A stretch of DNA of 64,000 nt from Rhodospirillaceae bacterium MC! (GTDB lineage Bacteria; Pseudomonadota; Alphaproteobacteria; MC1), in contig NQOV01000011.1 in the NCBI GenBank assembly GCA_002632265.1, forward strand, positions 38,566 through 102,565. Reading direction: 5' to 3'. The position numbers and the translations under genes are program-made. The first letter of the stretch is position 1. Each line of letters begins with the position of its first letter. Shown here in pieces: positions 5,920 through 62,604 of the stretch. The notes under the pieces are model-generated. The model saw only the letters and a list, made by a program, of their open reading frames with translations, did not search any database and was not told where the DNA came from.

Positions 5920-7878
5920 ATGTTTACAAGATACAGAACCCTAATATCGTTTAATATCTTTATGATCGTCATGTATACCGCTTTAAGATTTTTTTTACTG
6001 ATACATTCTCATATTGCATCAGGAATATCTTTTGCGGATATTATGCGTGTATTTGGTTTTGGTTTCATGTTTGATATGAGCTTTATCTTATATTTTAACA
6101 TTATCTTTTCTCTATTGTTTTTTATTATTCCTGATTTCCTATGGCAAACAAAAGTTATCCGTGGATTTATTCAGCTTCTATTATTTATCATGACATTTTG
6201 CATTGGTTTGGGCATGATCGCCGAAATCTTATTCTGGAATGAATTCCATGCAAGATTTAACTTTATTACAATCGATTCTTTAATATATACCAATACAGTA
6301 TTAAAAGATGTTTGGCACAACTATCATATCATATGGATTACTGCTATCCTTTTAGCTGTGGTTATTGTAGTATATTATCTGCTACAAAAGATATTTTTTA
6401 AGGTTTACAATCAACGCTCAACCTATATTTCAAGATTTCCCTATTTACTTATTTATATCATTCTCATAGGCGGATGTTTCCTGCTTGTGGATCAAGACGT
6501 ACGAGACGTTGTATCAGATGACTCTTATATATGTGAATTGGCGTCAAATGGTCCCTATCAACTCTTTTCGGCATTTAGAAACAACACAATTAACTTCTCT
6601 AAATTTTATAACACTTTAGATCCTAAACAAGCTAAAACCATAGTAGCTAAAGATATCATGGAATACAATTCCACCGATGTGGATTCATCTAGATTTGGGG
6701 TAGAGCGTAAAATCATAAATAATCCAAAACACTTACGTAAACCCAATTATAACGTGGTACTTATAACCGTTGAAAGCCTAAGTGCAAAGGATATGACATA
6801 CGCAGGACAAAAAGAAAACATCACTCCCTTTTTAGATACAGTATCTAAACAAAGTTACTTTTTCAACAACTTCTACGCCACAGGCACAAGAACAGTACGA
6901 GGCTTGGAAGCCATAACCCTTTCCATGCCCCCAACTCCAGGACGTTCCATTATTAAGCGAATCGGTTACCAATCAAAATGGAACTCTCTAGGGGGAATCT
7001 TACATGATAGGGGATACGATAGTGTCTTTTTCTACGGTGGCAAAGGCTTTTTCGATAATCTGAACGCTTTCTTTTTAGGCAACAAATATCGCAAATTCGA
7101 CGCAAATGACATGCCAGATAGTGAACCAGAAAATGCAAAAACATCATGGGGATATGCTGATGAATTCGTCTTTAAGCACATGATCAATCAAGCAAATAAC
7201 GATTATAAAAAGCACAAGCCTTTCTTTTTCCATATCATGACAACTTCCAATCATAAACCTTACACCATTCCATCAGGGCGGATCTCTCAAAAGGCTCGCT
7301 ATGATGCAGGTGGCGTCCTTAACCCTAGACACAGCACAGTAAAATATACAGATTGGGTCATTCATAACTTCATGGATAACGCCAAAAAACAACCGTGGTT
7401 TAAAAATACTATTTTCCTTATTCTAGCCGACCATACCAACCACGCATCAGGACACACAACTTTACCTATTTGGCGTTATCATATTCCTTTCATTATTTAC
7501 GCTCCAAGTATCATAAAACATCCTAGAACCATTAAGACCCTATCATCTCAAGTGGACGTAGCCCCAACCCTTTTAGGAATTCTAGGCTTTAACTACAATT
7601 CTACCTTTTTTGGTAAAAATATCCTAAACATGTCCAACCAACAAGGACGTGCTTTCATCTCCACATATCAAAAACTAGGATACATAGATCACAACAACAA
7701 CCTATCCGTACTAATGCCCAACTTCCACAACATAATCCACCTAACCCCCACCCCCCACCACCCTCTCACCAAACCCCAACAAAAATCCCTCCTAAACCTA
7801 ACCATATCCTACTACCAAAACGCCAGCGAAGTCTACACCCAACACAAAAAAGACACCAACAACCGCCTACTAAAATAA
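5920..7878 (+). CDS. LTA synthase / phosphoglycerol-transferase family membrane sulfatase-fold protein
   Basis: 652-aa ORF with several N-terminal hydrophobic helices, then an alkaline-phosphatase/sulfatase-type domain (VVLITVESLS, ILADHTNH). The last ~60 codons are a low-complexity P/T/H/Q tail in a strongly A/C-rich tract. Confidence 0.75.
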   Translation: MFTRYRTLISFNIFMIVMYTALRFFLLIHSHIASGISFADIMRVFGFGFMFDMSFILYFNIIFSLLFFIIPDFLWQTKVIRGFIQLLLFIMTFCIGLGMIAEILFWNEFHARFNFITIDSLIYTNTVLKDVWHNYHIIWITAILLAVVIVVYYLLQKIFFKVYNQRSTYISRFPYLLIYIILIGGCFLLVDQDVRDVVSDDSYICELASNGPYQLFSAFRNNTINFSKFYNTLDPKQAKTIVAKDIMEYNSTDVDSSRFGVERKIINNPKHLRKPNYNVVLITVESLSAKDMTYAGQKENITPFLDTVSKQSYFFNNFYATGTRTVRGLEAITLSMPPTPGRSIIKRIGYQSKWNSLGGILHDRGYDSVFFYGGKGFFDNLNAFFLGNKYRKFDANDMPDSEPENAKTSWGYADEFVFKHMINQANNDYKKHKPFFFHIMTTSNHKPYTIPSGRISQKARYDAGGVLNPRHSTVKYTDWVIHNFMDNAKKQPWFKNTIFLILADHTNHASGHTTLPIWRYHIPFIIYAPSIIKHPRTIKTLSSQVDVAPTLLGILGFNYNSTFFGKNILNMSNQQGRAFISTYQKLGYIDHNNNLSVLMPNFHNIIHLTPTPHHPLTKPQQKSLLNLTISYYQNASEVYTQHKKDTNNRLLK

Positions 7879-10975: not shown

Positions 10976-11938
10976 ATGAAACAATATATTACAATAATAA
11001 CAATAGCATGCTCGTTCTTTATCACTAATGCGTATGCCAACAGCAAGCCACATCAGATATCTAATCAACAGCTAAAAGAACAATGCGGAATCGGTGCTTC
11101 GGATCTTAAAACTCAAGTGGCTTGTGTTAAATCCTTTGCCAATAAAGGACAAGAAAAAGCCCAACTAACTTTAGGCTTACTATATTTCACAGGGAGCGGA
11201 GTCGATAAAAATTTAACTATCGGCTTAAAATGGTGGCTCAAAGCAGGATCGTACGGAAATTCACAAACAGAATATAATATCGGTCTTTTACTATTTAAAG
11301 GATCGTACGGCATTAAAAAGGATTATAAACAAGCCTTTAAATGGTGGAAAAAGTCCGCAGATCAAAACTTCGCCCCAGCCCAAAACGCTCTAGGTACTCT
11401 TTATCAACAAGGATACGGCGTTAAAAAAGATCTTCGCCAATCAGCCATATACTACACAAAAGCCTCTCGCCAAAGATATCCCGAAGCTCAAAACAATATC
11501 GGCGTTATGTATATGAAAGGTATAGGCGTTAAACAAGATGATAAAATAGCCTTTAAAGTGCTATTACAATCGGCATATGGTGGCTTTAGTCTTGGAGCTT
11601 ATAATGTCGGTTATATGTATGCTAACGGTCGTGGTGTGGCTAAAAGCCTAATACGTGCCTATGCGTGGTGGATGGTTGCCGTTAATAGCGGAGCAAGAAA
11701 CCTAAAACAAGACGATTTCAACACTCTAGCAAAAAACTTCTCAAAAAATCAACTGGAACAAGCGAAAATGCTAGCAGGAACTATCGAACGCCAAATCCAA
11801 AAAAATCTTACTTCCAAAAATTATCAACAACAACAAAAACAAAGCCAAAAACAAATCCAACGCCAAAAGATCCAACAAAATAAACCAACAAAAGATCTAG
11901 ACATAAATTCCGACTATGAAGAACCATACGATGGTTAA
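10976..11938 (+). CDS. secreted Sel1-repeat (SLR/TPR-like) protein
   Basis: 320-aa ORF with a signal peptide and repeated A-x-GxxxAQxxLGxxYxxGxGVxKD units. The Q-rich C-terminal tail lies in an A/C-rich tract. Confidence 0.8.
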   Translation: MKQYITIITIACSFFITNAYANSKPHQISNQQLKEQCGIGASDLKTQVACVKSFANKGQEKAQLTLGLLYFTGSGVDKNLTIGLKWWLKAGSYGNSQTEYNIGLLLFKGSYGIKKDYKQAFKWWKKSADQNFAPAQNALGTLYQQGYGVKKDLRQSAIYYTKASRQRYPEAQNNIGVMYMKGIGVKQDDKIAFKVLLQSAYGGFSLGAYNVGYMYANGRGVAKSLIRAYAWWMVAVNSGARNLKQDDFNTLAKNFSKNQLEQAKMLAGTIERQIQKNLTSKNYQQQQKQSQKQIQRQKIQQNKPTKDLDINSDYEEPYDG

Positions 11939-11996
11939 ACCACACAACCCCGCCTTATATAAGGGGCATATACAGGAAAATATAACGCATACATAT

Positions 11997-12431
11997 ATGG
12001 ATATGGCCATAAAACAAGCACAAAAAGGATCAGCTCAAGAAGAAGTTCCCATAGGTGCAATCATTGTCCACAATCCAACAAATACAATCATAGCCCAAGC
12101 CCACAACACATGTAACCAAGAACAAAACCCCACAAAACACGCCGAAATATTAGCCATAGATCAAGCTTGTAAACATTTAAATAGCACATATCTAACAAAC
12201 TGTACAATATACGTAACCTTAGAACCATGTGCCATGTGTGCCATGGCTCTATCCTACACAAAAATACACAAAATAATATTCGGTGCTTACGATCCCAAAA
12301 GTGGCGGAATCGAACACGGTGCCCAAATCTACACCCACCCCCAAACCCACCACAAACCCGAAACCATCGGCGGTATCCAAGAACAAACCTGCAAAACCCT
12401 CCTAACCTCCTTCTTCCAATCCAAACGCTAA
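11997..12431 (+). CDS. tadA: tRNA adenosine(34) deaminase
   Basis: Deaminase zinc motifs HAE and PCAMC. The ORF opens at 11916 overlapping the upstream gene, and the ATG at 11997 gives a typical TadA N-terminus (start uncertain). Confidence 0.85.
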   Translation: MDMAIKQAQKGSAQEEVPIGAIIVHNPTNTIIAQAHNTCNQEQNPTKHAEILAIDQACKHLNSTYLTNCTIYVTLEPCAMCAMALSYTKIHKIIFGAYDPKSGGIEHGAQIYTHPQTHHKPETIGGIQEQTCKTLLTSFFQSKR

Positions 12432-12436
12432 CTTTA

Positions 12437-12504
12437 CCCCCTAACATGTGATCGAACAGACTTTCTACAACATCGCTATGTTCGAGCCGTCTCTCAAGAC
12501 AACC
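12437..12504 (-). repeat. core-family dispersed repeat, copy A (reverse orientation)
   Basis: The reverse complement reads GTCTTGAGAGACGGCTCGAACATAGCGATGTTGTAGAAAG...TTAGGGGG, aligning with copies B, C, D, F and I. Confidence 0.85.
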
Positions 12505-12691
12505 ATCCCAAAAAGGTCGACCAGTTTGATAAGATAGAAAGCGAATGTTTTTGTTTAGAATTCATTATATATGAAAACTATATAGTTAAATTAATCTTTA
12601 GATTATATGGGTAAAATATGAAGTCTGCAATTTTTTATCGGTTAAAAATCGCTATAAATTAAGTTCTTAGGAGAATTTATATGATATTAAC

Positions 12692-12720
12692 TTGACAAAA
12701 AAGTTAACCAATGTTAAAAT
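12692..12720 (+). promoter_or_regulatory. near-consensus sigma70-like promoter
   Basis: TTGACA, 17-nt spacer ending in TGT (extended -10), TAAAAT; 130 nt upstream of 12850. Confidence 0.5.
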
Positions 12721-12849
12721 TAATTTTAAAAAGAGATTGGGATAATTTTATTAACGGTTTGCGAATGCCAATAGCATATTAAATAAGAATAATCACATTT
12801 AAAATTTAATTATCAAATAAGTTCATTAGTAATAAAGGGAAAAAACAAA

Positions 12850-13587
12850 ATGGCTAAATATAACTATAAAGAAGGACAACAAAGAATCCAACAGATTTTA
12901 AACGCAACTGATCCAATCGAAGAAGATGACAGCATGTCTAAAGAGAGCGGGTCAACTTGTATTAATGGTCATTATTGTTGGATTAGTAGTGTTTTTGTTA
13001 ATGTGCGAGATTCTTCAAGTCTTTTTCAAAGTAAAGACGCTTTGCAACTAACTAAAATCATGAGAAGTTTCACATCGGAAGTAATAGAAATATTACGTGG
13101 AAATGAAAGTGATAATCTAGTTAAAGAGTTGGGCGTAAGAAATGACTGCGTATATGCAGTCTACTCAACACCTTCAAAATACGATATAGAAGAAGTAGTA
13201 GATAGAGTATTTTACGTAAATACCTACATAAAAATGCTTAACACATTACTTTATAGAAATAAAATCAACCATATATTATCTGTTGGCGTCGGCGTTGCTT
13301 CTGCTAGGGAATTAGTGGTAAACGCCGAAAGAAAAGGCAACGGCAAAACCAATGCCGTATGGATCGGCGGAACTGTAGAAGACGCTTTCTCCCTTTCAAA
13401 TATCGGCTCTAGAGATGATGTTTATCCCATAGTAATATCAAACAAAACATACTCAAATATCGGACACGATCACAAAAAACTCTTTAATAGCAACATAACA
13501 TCCACAGGAAAATTCTACACATCCAACGCCGTATTTGATGAATTTAAAGATTGGATAGATCGTGATATGAAAGTAGAAATAAAATAA
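12850..13587 (+). CDS. orphan protein with divergent class III nucleotidyl-cyclase-like sequence pattern
   Basis: 245-aa ORF. SSVFVNVRDSSSLF resembles FxDIxGFT, GVRNDCVYAVY resembles IGDxxMAVF, and SVGVGVASARELVV...AVWIGGTVEDAFSLSNIG resembles RIGIHxGxVxxG...GDxVNxAxRLE. Several catalytic positions are substituted. Homology is by eye only. Confidence 0.35.
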   Translation: MAKYNYKEGQQRIQQILNATDPIEEDDSMSKESGSTCINGHYCWISSVFVNVRDSSSLFQSKDALQLTKIMRSFTSEVIEILRGNESDNLVKELGVRNDCVYAVYSTPSKYDIEEVVDRVFYVNTYIKMLNTLLYRNKINHILSVGVGVASARELVVNAERKGNGKTNAVWIGGTVEDAFSLSNIGSRDDVYPIVISNKTYSNIGHDHKKLFNSNITSTGKFYTSNAVFDEFKDWIDRDMKVEIK

Positions 13588-13709
13588 AATCCCACCCCAT
13601 ATTAAGATTAAGATGTGAGAAGTTTTATATGTCCACATGTTCCTAGGATAAACATGTTAATAACCCTGTGAACAATTCTTATAACTCTCTATTTTTATTA
13701 ATATTTGTA

Positions 13710-13745
13710 ACCATTGATTCTTTTTGAATCAATGGTACTTTTATC
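13710..13745 (+). terminator. intrinsic terminator candidate
   Basis: ACCATTGATTC, TTTTT loop, GAATCAATGGT (11-bp perfect stem), followed by ACTTTTAT. Confidence 0.55.
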
Positions 13746-13754
13746 CCTTTCTCC

Positions 13755-13859
13755 TGCCTATCAGACTCCTAGCGTGAAGTCTTGACAGACGGTCCGAACA
13801 TAGCGATGTTGTAGAAAGTTTGTTTGATTCTACTTTAGGGGTGGGGGTGGGTAGGTGTG
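13755..13859 (+). repeat. core-family dispersed repeat, copy B (forward)
   Basis: A degenerate half unit, then GTCTTGACAGACGGTCCGAACATAGCGATGTTGTAGAAAGTTTG...TTTAGGGGTGGGGGTGGGTAGGTGTG. Confidence 0.85.
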
Positions 13860-14241
13860 TTTTATATTGGTATGGATAATGTTGATGTTGTATGTTATTG
13901 CCATTCCACATTATAGTAGAACATCACATCACAAAGAAAATATGATTGTGTTATATTGTGTTTATTTTTATAGTTGCTGGCCTAAGGTAGGCATGTAATT
14001 AGTATATCTAACGATACTTTAAATATGTTTTAATAAAGTGGCTATTTGTAGATATGACATTAGTTTGTTATAATACACCTAAAGTAACATTATATATACT
14101 TACATTATACATATTTTAGGCCTGTAAAAATGAATAGTAGCAATTATATATAATGATCTTTTCTATTTGTAGGAGAAGATATAATATGGATTGAGAGAAA
14201 TGAGCTAAGATATGTTTTAAATTAGCTCATTTAATGAGTTA

Positions 14242-14802
14242 TTATTCTTCTTGTACTTCTCGTACGACTGTAACTCCGTAGCTTTTTTCTAGGGAGATGA
14301 TTTTGTCGATGAATAAGTCGTGTAAATCGGCACATTTGAAGTTGTATTTTTCCATTAAAGCGTCTAAATCTAGTTCGTATTTGTCGTGTAGAGCTTGTTC
14401 TTTTTTGGAGATTTTTTTCACTTCTTCGGGTTTTGGAGCTGGTTCTTTTTTAGGTTTTTTGTTTTTCTTTAATTTTTGTTCTTCCCTAATTTTTTCCAAC
14501 TGTTCCAATTTTTCTTCATCGCTCATCTCTCTTGTAGGTTGAGATTCTGCAACTTCTTCTTCTTCCTCTTCTTCTTTTTTATCTAACTTATCGATTTTAA
14601 AGAACTTTGTAAGAGTTGACATTTTATCTTTTTGTGCTTGCTCTTTTTGTGCTAGCTCTTCCAGATTTGTTTTATACTCCTGTCTTAACTCTGCTACAAC
14701 TCCAGCAAATTCGCCATCTAATCTTCTAATATGACCGTCATACTGTTCTTTTAAGGCAACAGTTTTTGCAGTCAATTCGTCCATTAATTTTCCTTTAAGC
14801 AT
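14242..14802 (-). CDS. hypothetical charged coiled-coil protein
   Basis: 186-aa ORF, very E/K-rich with an EEEEEEE run and heptad-like stretches; no recognisable domain. Confidence 0.55.
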   Translation of the reverse strand: MLKGKLMDELTAKTVALKEQYDGHIRRLDGEFAGVVAELRQEYKTNLEELAQKEQAQKDKMSTLTKFFKIDKLDKKEEEEEEEVAESQPTREMSDEEKLEQLEKIREEQKLKKNKKPKKEPAPKPEEVKKISKKEQALHDKYELDLDALMEKYNFKCADLHDLFIDKIISLEKSYGVTVVREVQEE

Positions 14803-15182
14803 TTATATACTCTCCAACTAAAAAATATTGTCATTTGGTTAATGATAACATTAAATATTTAATTTTGTTTTAATTTCTTATAAATAAAATTAGCTTTGTT
14901 AAAATCTCAATAAAACATTGATTTCCCCAATAACAACCCTAATTCAAAAAGAAATAATAGCACATTTTTACAAACATAGCAACCAATAAATATTTAATCT
15001 CTCCTTTTTTTTATCCCTCCTTAAAGAAATACGAAACACCAACCAATAATTCTTATAAACATACTTACTATATGCCCATTTAAGGCCTAAATAGTTGGCC
15101 TGTAATAGTAGGTTAAAGATGAATAAAACAAGAAATAAAAAAGAATATAAAACACATCAACACTATCCATACCGACATTATG

Positions 15183-15266
15183 CACATTTACCCATCCCCA
15201 CCCATAAAGTGGGATCGAATAAGCCTTGTGCAACACCGCTATGTTCGGATCGTCTATCAAGACAAC
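15183..15266 (-). repeat. core-family dispersed repeat, copy C (reverse)
   Basis: The reverse complement reads GTCTTGATAGACGATCCGAACATAGCGGTGTTGCACAAGG...CTTTATGGGTGGGGATGGGTAAATGTG. It begins 31 nt past the M16 peptidase stop. Confidence 0.85.
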
Positions 15267-15296
15267 CAAACTAAAAAGATATATAAAAGCTATGTT

Positions 15297-16511
15297 TTAT
15301 CGTAAGATGACTTCTACGGTTGGGTGGGAAAGCATGTCGTGGGCTAGGGATTTTATGTCGGGGGGGGTTACGTTGTTTACCATTTGTAAGATTTCTTGGG
15401 TGGAGAAGATTTTGTTGTGGTGGGTCCATTGGCGGACGATTTGTTCACAGCGAGATCCTGTTGATTCTAGAGCCATGACGATGGCGGATTGGGCTTGTTT
15501 TTTTGCTCGTTCTAGTTCTTCGGTGGTTGGTTCTTTTTCGGCGATTTTTTCTAGTTCGTTTTTCATGGAAGATAGGATTGTGTGGCTTTGTTGGGTTTCA
15601 CATCCTGCATACATTCCGAAGACGCCAAGATCTTCCCAAGCCCATATGAAAGAGTACACACTATAAGCCAAGCCTTGGACTTCTCGGATTTCTTGAAATA
15701 TACGAGAAGACATTCCTCCACCAAGAATACTACTAAGTAAGGATTGAGCATAAAATTCGCTCTGACGGTATGAATATCCTTTAAAGCCAATGAGAGAGTG
15801 GGCTTGTTCTAAGCCTTGTTTTTCTTTTATTAGCTTTCCACCGTTATATATGGCAGGATCTACCGCATGTTTTTTAGTTGTTGAAAGACCAGCGAATTTA
15901 TTTTCTACCATTGAGACTAAAAGATCATGATCAACATTACCAGTGGCTACCACCACCGCATTATTGGTATTATAATGATCTTCCATATAGCTTTTAATGT
16001 GATCTTTAGTAAAGCTTTCTACGGTTTCCTTTATTCCTAGAATTGATCTGCCTATGGGCTGATTATTAAAGGCCTGTTGAGCGAAAAGATCATAAACATA
16101 ATCGTCAGGATCGTCTATGGATTGCATGATCTCTTGAATAACGACCTTTTGTTCTCTTTCAAGTTCGCTATCTTCAAAGGTGGAGTTTAATAGGATATCT
16201 GCCAATAGATCGATTCCAATGTGAAGATCTTCCTTTAAAAGACGCACATAAAAGGCGGTGTTATCTCTTGATGTATAAGCGTTAATATAACCGCCTGTAT
16301 TTTCAATTTCGTCAACTATTTGTTTGGGAGATCTGCTTTTTGTTCCCTTAAATACCATGTGTTCAACAAAATGAGAAATGCCGTTATATTCTTTTGTCTC
16401 ACTACGAGAGCCGACATCAAACCATATGCCAGCACTTACGGTTTCTAGAGCTGGCATGTTATGAGAAATAATTGTTAAGCCAGTGTTTAGGCTTGTGATT
16501 TGTATACTCAT
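15297..16511 (-). CDS. M16 family zinc metallopeptidase (pitrilysin/processing-peptidase-like)
   Basis: 404-aa ORF with the inverted zinc motif HFVEH and M16 N- and C-domain-like sequence. Confidence 0.85.
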   Translation of the reverse strand: MSIQITSLNTGLTIISHNMPALETVSAGIWFDVGSRSETKEYNGISHFVEHMVFKGTKSRSPKQIVDEIENTGGYINAYTSRDNTAFYVRLLKEDLHIGIDLLADILLNSTFEDSELEREQKVVIQEIMQSIDDPDDYVYDLFAQQAFNNQPIGRSILGIKETVESFTKDHIKSYMEDHYNTNNAVVVATGNVDHDLLVSMVENKFAGLSTTKKHAVDPAIYNGGKLIKEKQGLEQAHSLIGFKGYSYRQSEFYAQSLLSSILGGGMSSRIFQEIREVQGLAYSVYSFIWAWEDLGVFGMYAGCETQQSHTILSSMKNELEKIAEKEPTTEELERAKKQAQSAIVMALESTGSRCEQIVRQWTHHNKIFSTQEILQMVNNVTPPDIKSLAHDMLSHPTVEVILR

Positions 16512-17394: not shown

Positions 17395-20300
17395 TTACAA
17401 GTGTTTTGATATTTCATCGCTTAAGCCTTCAATGAATTTCTTATCTGATTTGGGGGTTTTCACTAGATAGAAGTTATCAGAATCATACTCATTGGCAAGA
17501 TTTTTATATTGCATGCCTAATTCAACTAGATTTTCAATATTATCGCTAACAAAAGATATGGGAACAACAATCACAGGGGTTTTATCTTCGCATAGGGTTT
17601 TAATAACATCTTTAGTGGCAGGGGCTAGCCAATGCTTGCCTACTGCACTTTGATAACAGTTTTTATAATTTATCTTGTCATTAAATTCAGGGTGTAAAGA
17701 TAAAACCTTGTTCATTATGGCTTTTGTTGAGCCTATTACTTCTTTTTCATAAGGATCATGACGCTTTTCCACTAGCTTAATAGGTAAACTATGGGCAGAA
17801 AATAACACAACTGGATAGGTGCTTTTTTCTTCTAAACATTTGTTAATATTATGAATAACTTCATCAGCATAGAAGTTGACAAACTCTCGGTTTGTGTAGA
17901 AACTCTCAATACAATCGATTTTAACATCTTTAATTGATGAATCTGTTATTTGGCGGTTAAATTCATCAACAAAACTACCCGTAGTAGTGGTTGAATAATG
18001 TGGATAAAGTGGGAAAACAATCACATGATCAGGCTCAAACTCTGCCAATTCTTCAATCGCTTCTGCTATGGACGGGGTTAGATATCTCATGGCTGTAACA
18101 ACTTTGAATTCACAATCTTCATGTTTATTTATTAAAGCATCGTGGATGTTGGTTGCTTGCTCTAAGGTTTGTTCAATGTGTGGACTATGACCATCAACCT
18201 GCTCGTAAATCGCTTGGGATTTTTCCAGTCGCTTACCTGTGGTCGCAATTTTAGAAACGAACATTCTACCTAATTTGTTTAATCCTGTAACCGCCGAATC
18301 CGCAAACATCTCAAGCAAAAAGGCCTTAACATCATCCATACCCTTAGGCGAACCAAAACCACCTACAACAATGGCTATTTTTTTAGATTCTTGATCTATC
18401 GATACGTGCTTTTTCATTTCTTCCTCATTGTATTTTGCTTTCATAAATCCCGACCAAAGACTCGGATTTATACTCGCCTGCTGATAAACTTCCCCACCTT
18501 GAGACGGTTCTTCTATCTCGCTAGGCTGTGGGTCGGTAGATTGAATCTCGCTAGATTCTGGCTCGCTAGATTCTTGATTGTCTTTCTTGCTTAAACTGTC
18601 ATCCCCATTATTTAAAAGACTCTCAATCTCTTCCATAGCCACAACCTCAAACGGCTTTTCCTCTGGCTCTTCAGGTGCTGGCGGTTGTTCTGTTGGGATT
18701 TCATCAGCTGATGTTGGGTCATCGTCGGCTAGAGCCATTTCTGGGGCGTCTTCTAGGGGTGGCATTTCATCCATAGGGATTTCGTCGGCTGGGGTTGGGT
18801 CATCAGCTAGGGCGATTTCTGGGTCATCTTCTAGAGCTGGCATTTCTTCCATAGGGATTTCTTCGGATGATGTTGGGTCATCGGCTAGGGCCATTTCTGG
18901 GGTGTCTTCTAGGGGTGGCATTTCGTCCATAGGGATTTCGTCAGCTGGTGCTATATCATCAGTTAGGGCGATTTCTGGGGCGTCTTCTAGAATTGGCGAT
19001 TCATCCACAGGGATTTCGTCAGCTGGTGTTGGGTCATCAGCTAGGGCCATTTCTGGGGCGTCTTCTAGAGCTGGCATTTCATCCATAGGGATTTCGTCGG
19101 CTGGTGTTAGGTCATCAGCTAGAGCGATTTCTGATTCGTCTTCTAGAGCTGGCGATTCGTCCATTGGGGTTTCGTCAGCTGGTGCTATGTCATCAGTTAG
19201 GGCGATTTCTGGAGCGTCTTCTAGGATTGGCGATTCGTCCATTGGGATTTCGTCGGCTGGTGTTGGGTCATCAGCTAGAGCGATTTCTGGAGCGTCTTCT
19301 AGGGTTGGAACTTCTTCCATTATCATATCATCAGACGCAACACTTTTATTTAAAACCATTTCTGATTCTTCTTCTATTTCTGGCATTTCGTCCATTGGGG
19401 TTTCGTCGGCTGGTGTTAGGTCATCAGCTAGAGCGATTTCTGATTCGTCTTCTAGAGCTGGCGATTCGTCCATTGGGGTTTCATCGGATGATGTTAGGTC
19501 GTCGGCTAGGGCGATTTCTGATTCGTCTTCGGAGAATGGGGGGTCTTCGGGTAGGTATAGTTTCATGGTGTTTGATGAAACGGATTTTTGGAATTCTAGG
19601 GCTTCTTCTGTGATTGGGGCGTTGTGTTTTTCGATTCTTTCTTGTAGTTTTTGAATTATGTTTTCGCTAACTGTTGAGGTTTCATCATCTGATGTTATGT
19701 CATCATCGAGAGCAATTTCTTGGTCATCTTCTAGGATTGGAGATTCGTCCATAGGAATTTCGTCGGATGATGTTAGGTCGTCATCGAGAGACATTTCTGG
19801 GGCGTCTTCTAGAGCTGGCATTTCTTCCATAGGAATTTCATCGGCTGATGTTAGGTCATCATCGAGAGCGATTTCTGGATCGTCTTCTAGGATTGGGGAT
19901 TCGTCCATAGGAATTTCGTCGGCTGGTGTTAGGTCATCATCGAGAGCGATTTCTGGATCGTCTTCTAGGATTGGCATTTCATCCATAGGGATTTCGTCAG
20001 CTGGTGTTAGATCCTCATCGAGAGCGATTTCTGATTCGTCTTCTAGAGCTGGCATTTCTTCCATAGGGATTTCGTCAGCTGGTGTTAGGTCGTCATCGAG
20101 AGCCATTTCTGATTCATCTTCTAGAGCTGGCATTTCATCCATAGGGATTTCGTCGGCTGGTGTTAGGTCATCGTCGAGAGACATTTCTGGGGCGTCTTCT
20201 AGAGCTGGCATTTCATCCATAGGGATTTCGTCGGTTGGTGTTAGGTCATCGGCTAGGGCGATTTCTGGGGTGTCTTCTAGAGCTGGCATTTCATCCATAG

Positions 20301-22998
20301 GGATTTCTTCGTCTGATGTTAGGTCATCATCGAGAGACATTTCTGGGGCGTCTTCTAGAGCTGGCATTTCATCCATAGGGATTTCTTCGTCTGATGTTAG
20401 GTCATCATCGAGAGACATTTCTGGGGCGTCTTCTAGGGGTGGCATTTCATCCATAGGGATTTCTTCGGATAATGTTAGGTCATCGTCGAGAGCGATTTCT
20501 GATTCGTCTTCTAGAGCTGGCATTTCGTCCATAGGGATTTCTTCGGCTGGTGTTGGGTCATCGTCGAGAGCGATTTCTGATTCGTCTTCTAGAGCTGGCA
20601 TTTCATCCATTGGGATTTCGTCGGCTGGGGTTAGGTCATCGTCGAGAGACATTTCTGGGGCGTCTTCTAGGGGTGGCATTTCATCCATTGGGATTTCGTC
20701 GGCTGATGTTAGGTCGTCATCGAGAGACATTTCTGGGGCGTCTTCTAGAGCTGGCATTTCATCCATAGGGGTTTCGTCGGCTGATGTTGGGTCATCATCA
20801 AGAGCGATTTCTTGATCATCTTCTAGAGCTGGCGATTCGTCCATAGGGATTTCGTCGGTTGGTGTTGGGTCATCATCGAGAGACATTTCTGAAGCGTCTT
20901 CTAGAGCTGGCATTTCGTCCATAGAGATTTCTTCGGCTGATGTTAGGTCGTCATCGAGAACCATTTCTGATTCGTCTTCTAGAGCTGGCATTTCATCCAT
21001 TGGGATTTCGTCGGCTGGTGTTAGGTCATCGTCGAGAGACATTTCTTGGTCATCTTCTAGGATTGGAGATTCATCCATTGGGATTTCGTCGGGTGGGGTT
21101 AGGTTTTCGATGTCGGTTGCTAGTTCGTCTGCGGTTGGGGGTGTTGAGTCTAGGATTTGGTTTTGTAGGGCTTGGATTGTGTCGTCGCTTGCGAATGGGG
21201 TTAAGCTTTCGATTTCGTTGGCTTGGGCGTCGTCGCTTAATGGGATCGAATCTTCTAGAATTTTATTTTGTAAGGCTTGGATTGTGTCATCGCTTACGAA
21301 TGGAGTTAGGTTCTCTATTTCGTTGGCTTGTTCGTATTCGCTTAATAGAGCTGAATCTTCTAGGATTTGGTTTTGTAAAGATTGGATTGTGTCATCGCTT
21401 ACGAATGGGGTTAAGCTTTCGATTTCGTTGGCTTGGGCGTCGTCGCTTAATGGGATAGAATCTTCTAGAATTTTATTTTGTAGGGCTTGGATTGTGTCAT
21501 CGCTTACGAATGGGGTTAGGTTTTCGATTTCATTGGCTTGTTCGTATTCGCTTAATGGAGCTGAATCTTCTAGGATTTGGTTTTGTAAAGATTGGATTAC
21601 ATCATCGCTTACGAATGGGGTTAGGTTTTCGATTTCATTGGCTTGTTCGTATTCGCTTAATGGAGCTGAATCTTCTAGAATTTGGTTTTGTAAAGATTGG
21701 ATTACATCGTCGCTTACGAATGGAGTTAGGTTTTCGATTTCGTTGGCTTGTTCGTATTCGCTTAATGGAGCTGAATCTTCTAGGATTTGGTTTTGTAAGG
21801 CTTGGATTGTGTCATCGCTTACGAATGGAGTTAGGTTCTCTATTTCGCTGGCTTGTTCGTATTCGCTTAATGGGGCTGAATCTTCTAGAATTTGGTTTTG
21901 TAAAGATTGGATTACATCATCGCTTACGAATGGAGTTAGGTTCTCTATTTCGCTGGCTTGTTCGTATTCACTTAATGGGGCTGAATCTTCTAGGATTTGG
22001 TTTTGTAAGGCTTGGATTGTGTCATCGCTTACGAATGGAGTTAGGTTTTCGATTTCGTTGGCTTGTTCGTATTCGCTTAATGGGGCTGAATCTTCTAGGA
22101 TTTGGTTTTGTAAAGATTGGATTACATCATCGCTTACGAATGGAGTTAGGTTCTCTATTTCGCTGGCTTGTTCGTATTCGCTTAATGGGGCTGAATCTTC
22201 TAGGATTTGGTTTTGTAAAGATTGGATTACATCATCGCTTACGAATGGAGTTAGGTTCTCTATTTCGTTGGCTTGTTCGTATTCGCTTAATGGAGTGTCG
22301 CCTTGGGTTGGGGTGGTGGAGTATACTATGTTTTTGAATTTATCTGCAAGGTTGTTTTCGGCGGTGGTTTTTTGTTGGGCGTGTTGTTTTACCGCCTGAT
22401 CTAAAAGGTGCATGTGTTTATCGGCAAGAGTGCTTTCTTTACCTGTGTGGGCGATATCGTGAACATTGGTTTCAAGATAAGCTTTGATTTTTGATATTAT
22501 GGTATCTATTTTTTTATCGGAAATTGGTTTTTCTTCGTAAACTATTTCTACTGGCGGTTTAGCTGGTTGGGGCTGTGGAGCAGGTGCAGGATCTGCAGAT
22601 TGTGCAGATTGTTTTAATTCTTCGGCTTGTAATTTACGTGCTTGTAGTTCGGCTTTTACCAGGGCTATTTCCGCTTGATAACGTCTATCACGGACGATAC
22701 CGTCGTGAACTTTTTGTGATAAGGCTGGGTTGCTATCGATAATATGGGTAACTTCTTCTATGGTTTCCTTATGAAGTAATTTTTTTTCTTCTTCTTCGAT
22801 TTTGCCTGCTAGGGGTTTGTAGGCGTCGTAATAATTGTTGATGTTAACATCAGAGGCCTCCAAAGCCTCTTCTAGGACTGGAGTATCTACGTTAAGATCG
22901 TAAAAATGGACTCCTGCTTCAATATTTTCAGGAGCTTTTTCTTTAGGTTCTACTTCTAAATCATAGAAATCATCAATATTTACTTTTTTATCAGTCAT
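17395..22998 (-). CDS. hemH: giant acidic tandem-repeat protein fused in frame to ferrochelatase
   Basis: 1867-aa uninterrupted ORF. The C-terminal ~340 aa is ferrochelatase-like (KKIAIVVGGFGSPKG...VKAFL, SAHSLP). An internal ATG at 18417-18415 preceded by GAGGAAGAA could yield free HemH. Confidence 0.75.
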   Translation of the reverse strand: MTDKKVNIDDFYDLEVEPKEKAPENIEAGVHFYDLNVDTPVLEEALEASDVNINNYYDAYKPLAGKIEEEEKKLLHKETIEEVTHIIDSNPALSQKVHDGIVRDRRYQAEIALVKAELQARKLQAEELKQSAQSADPAPAPQPQPAKPPVEIVYEEKPISDKKIDTIISKIKAYLETNVHDIAHTGKESTLADKHMHLLDQAVKQHAQQKTTAENNLADKFKNIVYSTTPTQGDTPLSEYEQANEIENLTPFVSDDVIQSLQNQILEDSAPLSEYEQASEIENLTPFVSDDVIQSLQNQILEDSAPLSEYEQANEIENLTPFVSDDTIQALQNQILEDSAPLSEYEQASEIENLTPFVSDDVIQSLQNQILEDSAPLSEYEQASEIENLTPFVSDDTIQALQNQILEDSAPLSEYEQANEIENLTPFVSDDVIQSLQNQILEDSAPLSEYEQANEIENLTPFVSDDVIQSLQNQILEDSAPLSEYEQANEIENLTPFVSDDTIQALQNKILEDSIPLSDDAQANEIESLTPFVSDDTIQSLQNQILEDSALLSEYEQANEIENLTPFVSDDTIQALQNKILEDSIPLSDDAQANEIESLTPFASDDTIQALQNQILDSTPPTADELATDIENLTPPDEIPMDESPILEDDQEMSLDDDLTPADEIPMDEMPALEDESEMVLDDDLTSAEEISMDEMPALEDASEMSLDDDPTPTDEIPMDESPALEDDQEIALDDDPTSADETPMDEMPALEDAPEMSLDDDLTSADEIPMDEMPPLEDAPEMSLDDDLTPADEIPMDEMPALEDESEIALDDDPTPAEEIPMDEMPALEDESEIALDDDLTLSEEIPMDEMPPLEDAPEMSLDDDLTSDEEIPMDEMPALEDAPEMSLDDDLTSDEEIPMDEMPALEDTPEIALADDLTPTDEIPMDEMPALEDAPEMSLDDDLTPADEIPMDEMPALEDESEMALDDDLTPADEIPMEEMPALEDESEIALDEDLTPADEIPMDEMPILEDDPEIALDDDLTPADEIPMDESPILEDDPEIALDDDLTSADEIPMEEMPALEDAPEMSLDDDLTSSDEIPMDESPILEDDQEIALDDDITSDDETSTVSENIIQKLQERIEKHNAPITEEALEFQKSVSSNTMKLYLPEDPPFSEDESEIALADDLTSSDETPMDESPALEDESEIALADDLTPADETPMDEMPEIEEESEMVLNKSVASDDMIMEEVPTLEDAPEIALADDPTPADEIPMDESPILEDAPEIALTDDIAPADETPMDESPALEDESEIALADDLTPADEIPMDEMPALEDAPEMALADDPTPADEIPVDESPILEDAPEIALTDDIAPADEIPMDEMPPLEDTPEMALADDPTSSEEIPMEEMPALEDDPEIALADDPTPADEIPMDEMPPLEDAPEMALADDDPTSADEIPTEQPPAPEEPEEKPFEVVAMEEIESLLNNGDDSLSKKDNQESSEPESSEIQSTDPQPSEIEEPSQGGEVYQQASINPSLWSGFMKAKYNEEEMKKHVSIDQESKKIAIVVGGFGSPKGMDDVKAFLLEMFADSAVTGLNKLGRMFVSKIATTGKRLEKSQAIYEQVDGHSPHIEQTLEQATNIHDALINKHEDCEFKVVTAMRYLTPSIAEAIEELAEFEPDHVIVFPLYPHYSTTTTGSFVDEFNRQITDSSIKDVKIDCIESFYTNREFVNFYADEVIHNINKCLEEKSTYPVVLFSAHSLPIKLVEKRHDPYEKEVIGSTKAIMNKVLSLHPEFNDKINYKNCYQSAVGKHWLAPATKDVIKTLCEDKTPVIVVPISFVSDNIENLVELGMQYKNLANEYDSDNFYLVKTPKSDKKFIEGLSDEISKHL
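18690..21095 (-). repeat. 78-bp (26-aa) coding tandem repeat, roughly 29 units, one unique interruption near 19515-19700
   Basis: Period measured directly (GGCATTTC.TCCATAGGG at 18761 and 18839). The unit encodes DDDLTPADEIPMDEMPALEDAPEMSL. Confidence 0.9.
21150..22293 (-). repeat. 102-bp (34-aa) coding tandem repeat, about 11 units
   Basis: The unit encodes PLSEYEQANEIENLTPFVSDDVIQSLQNQILEDSA. Two alternating variants (VIQSL and TIQAL) are visible. Confidence 0.9.
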
Positions 22999-33875: not shown

Positions 33876-33961
33876 GCCTCTATGGTGAAATTGGTAGACA
33901 CGTCAGACTCAAAATCTGATGCTCTTAGAGCGTACCTGTTCGAGTCAGGTTAGAGGCACCA
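33876..33961 (+). tRNA. tRNA-Leu (anticodon CAA), long variable arm, CCA encoded
   Basis: Acceptor GCCTCTA pairs with TAGAGGC. Anticodon stem TCAGA/TCTGA carries loop CTCAAAA. T-arm is GTTCGAGTC, and the 3' end is ACCA. Confidence 0.9.
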
Positions 33962-35423: not shown

Positions 35424-35513
35424 ATCTTGTTTTAACAGACAGACGCTCCGAGCATAGCGATGTTGCACAAAGTTTCTTCGATCCCACTTTAGGGATGTGG
35501 ATAGGTAAGTGTG
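35424..35513 (+). repeat. core-family dispersed repeat, copy D (forward)
   Basis: TTTTAACAGACAGACGCTCCGAGCATAGCGATGTTGCACAAAGTTTCTTCGATCCCACTTTAGGGATGTGGATAGGTAAGTGTG; starts 6 nt after the J-protein stop. Confidence 0.85.
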
Positions 35514-36183
35514 TATTTTTTATTTTGTGGTATTGTAATTGGTTGGATTCATATGAATCATAAAATATGATTTTATAAAAAAATAAATGCTAAGAAGTCA
35601 TTTTTACTATTTTATTGTATACAATTGTAGATTCTTGAAATTGGAGATATCTTATAATTTTTTTTAATTTGATATTTTCATAATATTATCGTTATAAGAT
35701 TCGCAAAAAAAATATTTTAAATTTTAAAAGACAAATTTTTTAGCAAAAGAAAATTATTAAATTCGCACTTAGAATAAAAATAAAAAATTACTCCGTTAAA
35801 TTATTTTTAAAAATCAAAATCAAAAACGCCTTAATAACAAAATTAAAAAAATCTATTTGTAAGTCAAATAAATTTTCTCATATTATAATCGTATAAATAA
35901 TAAAATTAAAAATCTCCAACCAAAATCAAAAAAAATTTTTATCATTAAAACCGCTCCACCAATAAAAATTAAAAAACACCAATAATTAAAATCGTACCAA
36001 CAACAAATAAAAAATATTTATCCCTACTCCCCCTACAAAAATAAAATTTTTCTTTTTTTAATTACCCACATAACAACCATCCCACAACTTTATCCGACAA
36101 TAAAATAAATCCCAGCAACCAGTATAAAATATTACACCACACTAAATCAAAATCCTTAACAAACATTCGCATTTTTTTTATTA

Positions 36184-36430
36184 TCTTATCAGACGGTCGC
36201 TCTCTTTGGTTTGGTTGTTGCCCTGCTCGAGCGGAGGTCTTGACAGACGGTCGCCCTGCTCGAGCGGAGGTCTTGACAGACGGTCGCTCTACTCGAGCGT
36301 AGGTCTTAACAGACGGTTGCCCTACTCGGGCGTAGGTCTTAACAGACGGTTGCCCTGCTCGGGCGGAGGTCTTGACAGACGGTCCAAACATAGCATGTTT
36401 GATCGCATGTTAGAGTTAGGATTTAGGCTG
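36184..36430 (+). repeat. tandem amplification of the core-family repeat (33-bp unit, four copies, plus flanking partial and full copies)
   Basis: GTCTTGACAGACGGTCGCCCTGCTCGAGCGGAG and variants at 36237, 36270, 36303 and 36336. A terminal long-form copy starts at 36369. Confidence 0.92.
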
Positions 36431-36458
36431 TTTTTTTATAATATATGGTTGTTTTGTA

Positions 36459-36653
36459 TGGTATTTATGAAGATTTTTAGAATGAAAAATAAGATGTACA
36501 TAAAAAAATATATACATCTTTATTGTTATTTTATATGGTATTTATAAAGATTTTTAGAATGAGAAATAAGATGTACATAAAAAATACATATATCTTTATT
36601 GTTATTTTATATGGTATTTATGAAGATTTTTAGAATGAGAAATACATATACCT
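36459..36653 (+). repeat. ~76-bp tandem repeat, 2.5 units
   Basis: ATGGTATTTATGAAGATTTTTAGAATGA.AAATAAGATGTACATAAAAAA... repeats at 36459, 36536 and 36612. A related sequence follows copy G at 42660-42730. Confidence 0.85.
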
Positions 36654-36680
36654 TAAGCTCATAACTACATCAAAATTATA

Positions 36681-36775
36681 CATACTTACTTATCTACATC
36701 CCTAATGTGATCGAAGAAGCTTTGTGCAACATCGCTATGGCCGTCTGTTATAGACAAGGGAACCAAAGAGAGTGA
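36681..36775 (-). repeat. core-family dispersed repeat, copy F (reverse)
   Basis: The reverse complement reads CTCTCTTTGGTTCCCTTGTCTATAACAGACGGCCATAGCGATGTTGCACAAAGCTTCTTCGATCACATTAGGGATGTAGATAAG. It lies just past the mnmG stop. Confidence 0.85.
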
Positions 36776-62500: not shown

Positions 62501-62604
62501 CATGACCCAAATAACTTGGGATCGAATAAGTTTTGTGCAACATCGCTATGTTTGGCCCGTCTGGCAAGACTTCCGCCCGAATAGGGCAACTGTCTGTTAA
62601 GACG
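62501..62604 (-). repeat. core-family dispersed repeat, copy I (reverse; one 33-bp unit plus a full copy)
   Basis: The reverse complement reads CGTCTTAACAGACAGTTGCCCTATTCGGGCGGAAGTCTTGCCAGACGGGCCAAACATAGCGATGTTGCACAAAACTTATTCGATCCC...; starts 19 nt past the tdk stop. Confidence 0.85.

Follow-up and report, generated by a model that had tools for sequence, protein, structure and literature searches.

A stretch of DNA of 64,000 nucleotides (64 kb; the window) carries, between tadA and an M16 peptidase gene, a single gene whose product has the motif blocks of a class III nucleotidyl cyclase and which lies between inverted repeats. The locus raises the question of whether this gene is a working antiphage (Pycsar) signalling enzyme, the leftover of such a system, a protein with another role, or the cargo of a mobile unit. 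On the evidence presented here it is probably, at a moderate level of confidence, what is left, orphaned and crippled in its catalysis, of a PycTM-PycC system acquired by horizontal transfer.

Family Membership and Fold

12850-13587, + strand: PycC-family (Pycsar cyclase) ORF, intact, 245 aa, with profile, family and structure matches

The 245-aa ORF with class III block motifs that had been noticed in the sequence is present on the plus strand together with the motifs quoted for it, and it runs full length without a frameshift or a stop. Its product is matched by the PADLOC PycC model PDLC02368 over the full length of the protein (E = 6e-68, residues 2-240) and by three further PADLOC PycC models. 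The family profile, when compared with solved structures, finds AnPycC (8JSZ, 3.5e-16), BcPycC (7R65, 8e-15) and EaPycC (8JSF, 3e-6). An AF2 model (pLDDT 80, pTM 0.79) was searched with Foldseek, as the earlier note had proposed; the best PDB match is the cUMP synthase 7R65 (TM 0.71/0.75), followed by 8JSZ and then by the class III cyclases Cya2, CyaB and CyaC, all with probability 1.00. The other proposed comparison, with the Pfam profile PF00211, gives no match to the protein even at E<=10, and the same profile matches some of its relatives weakly. Collectively, the PADLOC, profile and Foldseek results bear out the proposal of a minimal Pycsar-type cyclase domain: the ORF genuinely belongs to the Pycsar cyclase (PycC) family and has the class III cyclase fold. 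The word orphan does not apply to it if a protein without relatives is meant, as the family comprises 967 representative clusters at E<=1e-3.

The solved members of the family are BcPycC (7R65, clade B, cUMP), AnPycC (8JSZ, clade D, cUMP) and EaPycC (8JSF, clade E, cCMP). The protein resembles them in fold and in profile score (E of 1e-15 to 1e-16), and the second metal-binding Asp aligns with theirs, as do the aromatic and the basic residues of the pocket. It differs from them in that the structural alignment shows only 13-14% identity and in that the first metal-binding Asp is replaced; the zinc ribbon of clade D and the Y-shaped insertion of clade E are both absent.

The composition of the gene is ordinary for the window, with a G+C content of 34.7% and a GC3 of 29.3%, both within 1 SD of the other genes, and typical codon usage, so that no compositional sign of recent transfer is seen. 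This typicality does not discriminate transfer, since low-G+C donors would look alike. The intact reading frame is itself an argument against a relic, because stop codons arise easily in a genome of 35% G+C.

Canonical Relatives and the Missing Effector

The gene neighbourhoods of homologues, whose inspection the earlier note had recommended, are consistent for the canonical relatives. In all eight that were inspected, with 30-45% identity to the cyclase protein, a PycTM gene called by PF18967 or by a PycTM HMM (1e-25 to 1e-56) lies directly upstream, and both metal-binding Asp residues are kept. These eight are five metagenomic loci, the Lactococcus plasmid pUC06D, a Bacillus velezensis plasmid and a Ruminococcus phage; their settings are next to restriction-modification systems, on plasmids or in a phage, and the pUC06D neighbour is annotated as a "Pycsar system effector family protein". 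The closest known counterparts of the protein are thus single-domain cyclases paired with PycTM, as represented by PDLC02368 and by WP_021463127.1 of L. lactis pUC06D, which is encoded next to the effector WP_081213850.1 and is about 245 aa long, as here. The likeness extends to the full-length profile match, to an identity of 37-45%, and to an N-terminal helix followed by the class III core with the motif order FV[D]xRxS, RGDCVY, WIG...A. Unlike these cyclases, the gene analysed here has no PycTM upstream, carries Asn at the first metal-binding position along with the changes G98N, K158N and G160E, and lies amid housekeeping genes rather than in a defence island, on a plasmid or in a phage.

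The effector was sought by tblastn with three PycTM proteins, by a five-sequence PycTM HMM run with filters off against every stop-free segment, and by Pfam searches of 12432-12852 and 13585-14245, translated in all frames and X-masked. Neither PycTM nor another effector, intact or decayed, was found in any of the six frames of the 64 kb. The best PycTM match anywhere in the window reaches only E = 0.67 and the scores of the upstream spacer are negative, by which a decayed PycTM up- or downstream of the gene was rejected; between the repeat and the cyclase ATG there is no ORF of at least 30 aa. PADLOC gives no match for nine neighbouring proteins. The earlier statement that no effector is adjacent is therefore upheld by all of these searches. 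A second cyclase paralogue, as occurs in the three-gene loci L005 and L006, is likewise absent from the 64 kb. A complete Pycsar system has its effector gene (PycTM, PycTIR or a further effector activated by a cNMP) in the same operon, which is the case in 8/8 canonical relatives and is not the case here within 64 kb. In a tested Pycsar system, either deletion of PycTM or mutation of the PycC active site abolishes the Pycsar contribution (PMC13069673).

Active-Site Residues

13000-13002, + strand: codon AAT of Asn51, at the site of the first catalytic metal-binding Asp (EaPycC D102) by alignment
13141-13146, + strand: codons AAT GAC of Asn98-Asp99; Asp99 is the second metal-binding Asp (EaPycC D146), retained, and the preceding Gly is replaced by Asn98
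13321-13329, + strand: codons of Asn158-Ala159-Glu160, where the family motif is K-A-G (K in 87% and G in 92% of canonical members)

The metal ligands of EaPycC are D102 and D146 (PMC11224242). In alignments with homologues and with the solved PycC structures they correspond to N51 and D99 of the cyclase protein, which confirms the earlier observation that the first metal Asp reads Asn. PycC enzymes require two conserved metal-coordinating Asp residues, and here only Asp99 is kept. Class III cyclases are catalytically crippled when one or the other metal Asp is lost. In a homodimer Asn51 would be present in both active sites, and the first of the two Asp residues needed for two-metal catalysis would be gone from each. 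The AAT codon of Asn51 is one G-to-A transition away from GAT.

The replacement is not isolated. Further near-invariant active-site positions are changed by G98N, K158N and G160E, the Gly before the second metal Asp being 96% conserved in canonical members. Of the 22 columns that reach at least 85% conservation across 102 canonical members, seven deviate in the protein, including these three and D51N, as against a canonical mean of 1.7. The 15 other columns are retained, and F49, R97 and Y102, the equivalents of the nucleotide-pocket residues F60, K104 and F109 of AnPycC, are counted as kept. The Asn/Arg transition-state pair had been described as reading Glu/Ser; the alignment confirms this for positions 177 and 181, where the canonical pair is absent, but both columns vary within the family, about 95 canonical members including 34 with N and 38 with K.

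Across the family, 110 of 127 representatives have Asp at position 51 and 11 have Asn. This recurrence of Asn at the metal site in deeply diverged members suggests that selection can maintain it, and it speaks against a relic. So do the retained pocket residues and conserved columns, together with the extent of the effector search, which covered 64 kb of the genome. The deviations of the protein fall preferentially on columns that the degenerate members of the family also lose; the trend is weak, and the corresponding relaxed-constraint (relative-rate) statistic was not relied on.

Transcription Signals and Neighbourhood

12692-12720, + strand: promoter-like TTGACA-17-TAAAAT site, its -10 element extended by a TG; the ATG follows 130 nt downstream
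13710-13736, + strand: intrinsic-terminator-like hairpin with a T-rich tail, -15.8 kcal/mol, z = -6.8
14242-14802, - strand: ORFan of 186 aa, Glu/Lys-rich, in convergent orientation to the cyclase gene and located between repeat copies B and C; context, not a part of a Pycsar system

The near-consensus promoter and the terminator attributed to the gene are both present, the former with its upstream TG and the latter as a strong hairpin. Sites with at least 11 of 12 promoter matches are rare, only five being found on both strands of the whole 64 kb, and another of the five lies just upstream of a tRNA gene; shuffling the 345-nt spacer yields such a site in 2.5% of cases. The cyclase gene can probably be transcribed. 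A promoter among the best in the window and a strong terminator fit a gene that is still used, an observation that counts against a relic.

The flanking genes (tadA, a Sel1-repeat protein, the M16 peptidase, an ABC-2 permease and hemH) are of the housekeeping kind and place the gene in neither a defence island nor a mobile element, and no transposase or integrase is found near it. The site is probably a formerly convergent junction of tadA and the M16 peptidase gene. The closest relatives of the M16 peptidase are 47-49% identical (gut and rumen alphaproteobacterial MAGs) and show no synteny, and the closest TadA other than the protein itself, among 5.8 billion proteins, shares 56% identity. 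A second assembly of the same organism shows zero mismatches over 16 kb, the sole difference being one 23-nt indel elsewhere; as the sequence is practically identical, it is uninformative on selection. The 186-aa ORFan was considered as an effector and rejected: it belongs to no Pfam, PADLOC, PHROG or NCBIfam family, has no evident TM segment and has no homologue among the 5.8 billion proteins.

The Repeats around the Gene

12438-12515 (end approximate), - strand: repeat copy A, starting 6 nt past the tadA stop, with a degenerate G-rich tail into the tadA 3' end
13779-13888, + strand: repeat copy B, in the opposite orientation to copies A and C
15154-15278, - strand: repeat copy C, a direct counterpart of copy A (77% identity), 19 nt past the M16 peptidase stop codon

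The claim that inverted repeats bracket the gene is correct in substance, as the arms 12438-12500 and 13779-13841 (63 nt) are 84% complementary; the limits given for the copies were slightly off, copy A extending to about 12515 and copy B spanning 13779-13888 instead of 13755-13859. The 32-nt repeat core, at no more than three mismatches, occurs exactly twice in the 64 kb, where none is expected. With copy C a further 1.3 kb on, the bracket becomes part of a three-copy cluster within a dispersed family of repeats of about 100 nt, which has seven copies in the window, three of them near the cyclase gene. Other copies lie at a junction of convergent genes that holds no cargo (62511-62573) and around non-coding, AT-rich DNA (35438-36757). 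The copies are 77-84% alike and their ends are ill-defined, the repeat consensus shows no RNA or DNA structure and no covariation, Rfam gives no match, and a scan of metagenomes returned 20-nt chance matches only, so that a known RNA or a widespread element was rejected. The repeats are a resident, lineage-specific family that is found at cargo-free convergent junctions as well. The description of the locus as an autonomous unit thus applies as far as its own promoter and terminator are concerned, and is not supported in the sense of a mobile cassette.

That the repeats and the gene form a composite or MITE-flanked mobile cassette, which would have brought the cyclase here, is quite improbable. 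Complementary arms that enclose one gene, complete with promoter and terminator, and the clustering of three of the seven copies at this place, are what such a cassette would show. However, neither a transposase nearby nor another copy of the unit is found, and the repeat itself is resident and occurs elsewhere without cargo, in copies that share neither a consensus structure nor an Rfam match. Moreover, the relatives of the gene are found on plasmids of Firmicutes and Actinobacteria and in a phage, unlike the repeat.

Degenerate Family Members and AbiL Operons

Among about 124 representatives of the family, 22 (about 17%) lack one or both metal-binding Asp residues, Asn being the commonest replacement. 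Where the context of such a degenerate member can be used, the gene stands alone or takes the third place in an AbiL operon. All four usable loci without a PycTM link (the gene in the window, P0237, P0194 and P0174) have Asn at the first metal position, and P0174 lacks the second metal Asp too. P0237 is a solitary Asn variant found on 11 contigs, and P0194 and P0174 each occupy the third position of an AbiLi-AbiLii operon whose reading frames overlap or abut. Such a degenerate PycC-like third gene of an AbiLi-AbiLii (AAA_21 + RloB) operon is exemplified by KFZ27430.1 of Candidatus Izimaplasma HR2. The AbiL-linked members resemble the protein analysed here in matching the same PADLOC model (E of 1e-48 to 1e-63), in having lost a metal Asp, mostly to Asn, and in an altered K-A-G motif; N51, N158 and a non-Gly residue at 160 are common to the protein and the degenerate group. 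In contrast to them, the gene here has no AbiL neighbours and is closer in sequence to the canonical enzymes: its closest relatives, at about 40-45% identity, are all canonical and PycTM-linked, and the degenerate clade reaches no more than 33%. It has also lost 7 of the 22 conserved columns as against the 9-11 typical of the degenerate group. Its neighbour in an NJ tree, P0157, has no encoding contig on record.

A parallel exists in pseudo-heterodimeric class III cyclases, in which the degenerate site keeps the fold and loses the metal-binding residues. The protein is like these dead cyclase-homology domains in both respects; they, however, work within a heterodimer whose other half is active, and here no second cyclase gene is present in the 64 kb.

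Origin and Possible Role of the Gene

The absence of the partner gene and the change of a catalytic residue make it most likely that the gene is a leftover and not a working defence. The proposed course of events begins with the two-gene operon of the nearest relatives, PycTM followed by PycC, in which, upon infection, the cyclase synthesises a cyclic pyrimidine nucleotide and PycTM, a membrane effector, kills the cell. A horizontally acquired module of this kind most likely lost its effector, after which the cyclase would have been freed from catalytic constraint and would confer no antiphage protection; the gene now sits between copies of a resident repeat, in the company of an ORFan unrelated to it. 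Family membership and fold, the lack of an effector in the window, the residue changes and the gene order of relatives are shown by the data; the horizontal origin and the order of these events are inferred, as is the loss of activity, for which homology is the basis.

A rather unlikely alternative, still to be taken seriously, is that the protein belongs to a recurrent, unrecognised class of PycC-derived pseudo-cyclases acting outside Pycsar as non-catalytic nucleotide-binding sensors or regulators. Such proteins would have Asn at the first metal position and an altered K-A-G hairpin, would keep the fold and the pocket, and would serve as a third AbiL subunit or solitarily; the gene here would act alone or with an unlinked partner. 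The frequency of representatives without a metal Asp and the prevalence of Asn among them are consistent with this possibility, as are the residues shared with the degenerate group, the 11 contigs carrying the solitary P0237, and the kept pocket, ORF, promoter and terminator; the overlapping or abutting frames in the AbiL operons argue for a selected role of P0194 and P0174. The identity ranking speaks against it, and neither AbiL genes nor another partner occur nearby. Furthermore, D-to-N is the likeliest single mutation in an AT-biased genome and therefore need not have been selected. It is improbable that the cyclase is active, with Asn51 tolerated as a ligand and with its effector elsewhere in the genome or its cNMP used for another purpose. 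The retained D99 and base-pocket residues, the apparent expressibility of the gene and the 64 kb scope of the effector search would allow it. Nevertheless, Asp occupies the first metal site in every PycTM-linked relative, its loss is crippling in class III enzymes, three further conserved active-site positions are altered, and Pycsar genes are operonic in 8/8 canonical loci. The secretion of the cyclase into a eukaryotic host cell is extremely improbable: its sole support is the presence in the genome of several Sel1-repeat proteins, which are common in host-associated bacteria, and against it stand the lack of any secretion signal or secretion-system context, the lost catalytic residue, and the occurrence of this antiphage family in free-living and gut bacteria, on their plasmids and in a phage. 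Thus, of the three options in the earlier note, a pseudo-cyclase or relic is favoured, and a single-gene system or a host-directed effector finds no support.

Read as a remnant, the gene would illustrate the decay of an antiphage system, in which an intact and apparently expressible signalling enzyme outlasts its suicide effector, and the Asp-to-Asn change by a single transition is the one expected once catalysis no longer matters. Annotation by profile only would call it a Pycsar cyclase or a defence system, which would be misleading. Perhaps the weightier by-product is that about one-sixth of the PycC-subfamily representatives lack metal ligands and that some of them reside in AbiL operons, an arrangement with a degenerate PycC-like third gene that was not found described in the literature searched. 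These loci hint that other defence systems have taken up cyclase folds as modules without a catalytic function.

Family and fold of the cyclase-like protein

The 245-residue protein of the window has no match in Pfam, and its affiliation emerges from more specific comparisons. The PADLOC PycC model PDLC02368 covers residues 2-240 with E=6e-68, and three other PADLOC PycC models likewise match. A profile of close relatives, compared with solved structures, retrieves AnPycC (8JSZ, 3.5e-16), BcPycC (7R65, 8e-15) and EaPycC (8JSF, 3e-6), with classical class III cyclases ranking after these three Pycsar enzymes. The AlphaFold2 model (pLDDT 80, pTM 0.79) is most similar to 7R65 (TM 0.71/0.75) and 8JSZ, followed by Cya2, CyaB and CyaC. 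Collectively, these findings settle that the protein belongs to the PycC family and adopts the class III cyclase fold, bearing out the earlier description of a minimal Pycsar-type class III cyclase. Among 5.8 billion proteins, a word-indexed search picks up only 13 relatives (38-50% identity); when 1.84 billion cluster representatives are searched exhaustively by HMM, 967 score E≤1e-3, 145 of them reaching E≤1e-30.

Active site

The catalytic-metal ligands of EaPycC are D102 and D146 (PMC11224242). These residues align to Asn51 (codon AAT, 13000-13002) and Asp99 of the window protein, which confirms the replacement of the first metal Asp by Asn; Asp occupies position 51 in 110 of 127 family representatives. 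The alignment also reproduces the Glu/Ser found at the canonical Asn/Arg positions, a change to be given little weight because both columns vary within the PycC family. At 22 columns conserved at ≥85% in 102 canonical members (Asp at both metal positions), the window protein departs seven times (P30S, D51N, I96V, G98N, I147V, K158N and G160E), four of these changes falling in the catalytic motifs. Canonical members show a mean of 1.7 deviations, with six or fewer in 84 of 86. The nucleotide pocket is retained, F60, K104 and F109 of AnPycC corresponding to F49, R97 and Y102.

Canonical relatives and the missing effector

All eight canonical relatives with genomic context carry a PycTM (PF18967) gene directly upstream of the cyclase, at a spacing of 0-13 nt or overlapping. 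In this small sample, both metal Asp residues accompany PycTM in 8/8, and each of the four cyclases that lack a PycTM link has Asn at the first metal position. Five of the eight loci are metagenomic, and several adjoin restriction-modification genes. The other three lie on a Bacillus velezensis plasmid, in a Ruminococcus phage and on the Lactococcus lactis plasmid pUC06D, where the gene upstream is named "Pycsar system effector family protein" in RefSeq. PycTM followed by PycC is the typical gene order, and either PycTM deletion or PycC active-site mutation abolished the Pycsar contribution in the system studied (PMC13069673).

For the window gene, the 345-nt spacer from the nearest upstream repeat copy to the ATG contains no ORF of ≥30 aa. 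Searches with PycTM proteins and the PycTM HMM give no match in any frame of the spacer or of the whole 64-kb window, and the nine neighbouring proteins, products of housekeeping genes, have no match in PADLOC. The reported absence of an adjacent effector is therefore upheld across the 64 kb.

Two further arrangements were observed among the relatives. In Ruminococcus phage NatCom_28274 (PV036439.1, L107:1900-3214), both genes of a complete PycTM-PycC pair are annotated merely as hypothetical proteins; the cyclase has the two catalytic Asp residues. Three loci combine two different cyclase genes with one PycTM, in the order PycC-PycTM-PycC (L006:3660-5747 and L007:2128-4215) or PycTM-PycC-PycC (L005:3575-5759), with the catalytic aspartates kept in both cyclases.

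Degenerate members of the family

One or both metal Asp residues are missing in 22 representatives, the window protein included, with Asn as the commonest replacement; genomic context is recoverable for only a few. P0237 (L093:1700-2452; GCA_035399285.1, DAOPIS010000191.1) is another solitary PycC-like gene whose product has Asn as its first metal residue; seen on 11 contigs, it has sugar-kinase/LacI genes (pfkB/lacI-type) on one side and a serine-dehydratase gene on the other. P0194 (L098:2072-4744) and P0174 (L099:2175-4732; Ca. Izimaplasma HR2 KFZ27430.1) lack the metal aspartates and form the third gene of AbiLi-AbiLii (AAA_21 + RloB) operons, in which the reading frames abut or overlap. 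No description of this three-gene arrangement was found in the literature searched. The gene before P0211 is truncated and encodes a hydrophobic C-terminus, and P0170 begins at the edge of its contig. Judged by identity, canonical enzymes are the closest to the window protein (~40%, against ≤33% for the degenerate clade); a poorly resolved NJ tree places it beside other partly degenerate sequences. Recurrent degenerate PycC-like proteins, some in AbiL operons, are a more novel lead than the window gene.

Genomic setting and repeats

Features of the cyclase locus and repeat copies in the window
11916-12431, + strand, tadA, flanking the cyclase ORF upstream
12438-12515, - strand, repeat copy A
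12692-12720, promoter site TTGACA-17-TAAAAT with TG
12850-13587, + strand, cyclase ORF, 245 aa
13710-13736, terminator hairpin, -15.8 kcal/mol, z = -6.8
13779-13888, + strand, repeat copy B
14242-14802, - strand, 186-aa Glu/Lys-rich ORF between copies B and C
15154-15278, - strand, repeat copy C
15297-16511, - strand, M16 peptidase gene, beyond the 186-aa ORF
35438-35524, + strand, repeat copy
36366-36399, + strand, partial repeat copy
36671-36757, - strand, repeat copy
62511-62573, - strand, repeat copy

Just five sites in the whole window reach ≥11/12 matches, among them this promoter site and one a short way upstream of the tRNA gene at 33876; shuffling the 345-nt spacer yields such a site in only 2.5% of cases. 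Together with the hairpin, this supports the proposal that the ORF has its own promoter and terminator. The composition of the gene does not mark it as foreign, which is non-discriminating because likely donors are also AT-rich. For the 186-aa protein, a search of 5.8 billion proteins gives no homologue, and none of the libraries assigns it to a family.

The inverted arms around the cyclase ORF (12438-12500 and 13779-13841) span 63 nt and are 84% complementary; the bracket described in the earlier note is present, and its coordinates needed small corrections. A 32-nt core is present at two places in the window, where none is expected. The arms belong to a dispersed family of ~100 nt with seven copies in 64 kb, which has no match in Rfam, no conserved fold or covariation among its copies, and, in JGI metagenomes, only chance matches of 20 nt. 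All seven copies lie in convergent-gene junctions, provided that the cyclase gene and the 186-aa ORFan are counted as inserts in an ancestral tadA-> <-M16 junction; with that junction taken as one, three of five in the window carry repeats. Most copies are 6-50 nt from a stop codon, in sense orientation relative to the preceding gene. In one repeat-bearing junction a single copy stands alone; in a second, three copies lie around tandem arrays and 1.1 kb of non-coding, AT-rich DNA. No transposase or integrase was seen near the cyclase gene. These features point to resident elements at "safe" 3'-3' junctions rather than the ends of an imported element, and a mobile cassette, with repeats and cyclase gene as the moving unit, finds little or no support.

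Within the 1.1-kb stretch, bracketed by inverted repeat copies, two tandem arrays lie in succession: a 33-bp x 5 array (36220-36384) made up of the dispersed repeat's 5' part (GGTCTTGACAGACGGTC...), and then an AT-rich 76-bp x 2.6 array (36444-36644).

Interpretation

The window gene adds a new, solitary and probably inactive protein to the known PycC family. The earlier reading is confirmed in its observation and correct in its interpretation as regards the PycC family, the lack of an effector in the window and Asn51. In the most economical account, a Pycsar module would have been acquired horizontally; the family occurs on plasmids and in a phage, with mostly Gram-positive hosts. The suicide effector would have been lost, or would never have arrived along with the cyclase, which alone could not carry out abortive infection. 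Released from selection for catalysis, the cyclase may then have taken on the single-transition GAT -> AAT change, plus others.

A functional pseudo-cyclase, although judged unlikely, is kept as a serious rival because the ORF is intact with a good promoter and terminator, fold-defining and pocket residues are kept, and the Asn change turns up again in deeply diverged proteins, some of them encoded in operons that clearly function. A minor and distinctly improbable rival is an active enzyme whose effector is unlinked, and a host-directed effector has little or no support. A relic that has probably lost catalysis is the preferred reading.

Organism and other features of the window

The best M16 peptidase matches suggest that the organism is alphaproteobacterial, and the best non-self TadA reaches 56% identity, no close relative of the organism being sequenced. 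No synteny is found in the nearest genomes. The two public assemblies show zero mismatches over 16.3 kb, the sole difference being a 23-nt indel at 7764-7786, where a sulfatase-family gene is C-rich (CCCACC...) near its 3' end. A similar C-rich, Pro/His/Thr-coding tail is present at the tadA 3' end (12330-12400). At 17395-22998 (-), an 1867-aa ORF contains a ferrochelatase domain at residues 1539-1865 only; no known domain is found in the long N-terminal region, which consists of tandem repeats (78-bp x 30, 105-bp x 11), and the opposite strand likewise has long open reading frames.
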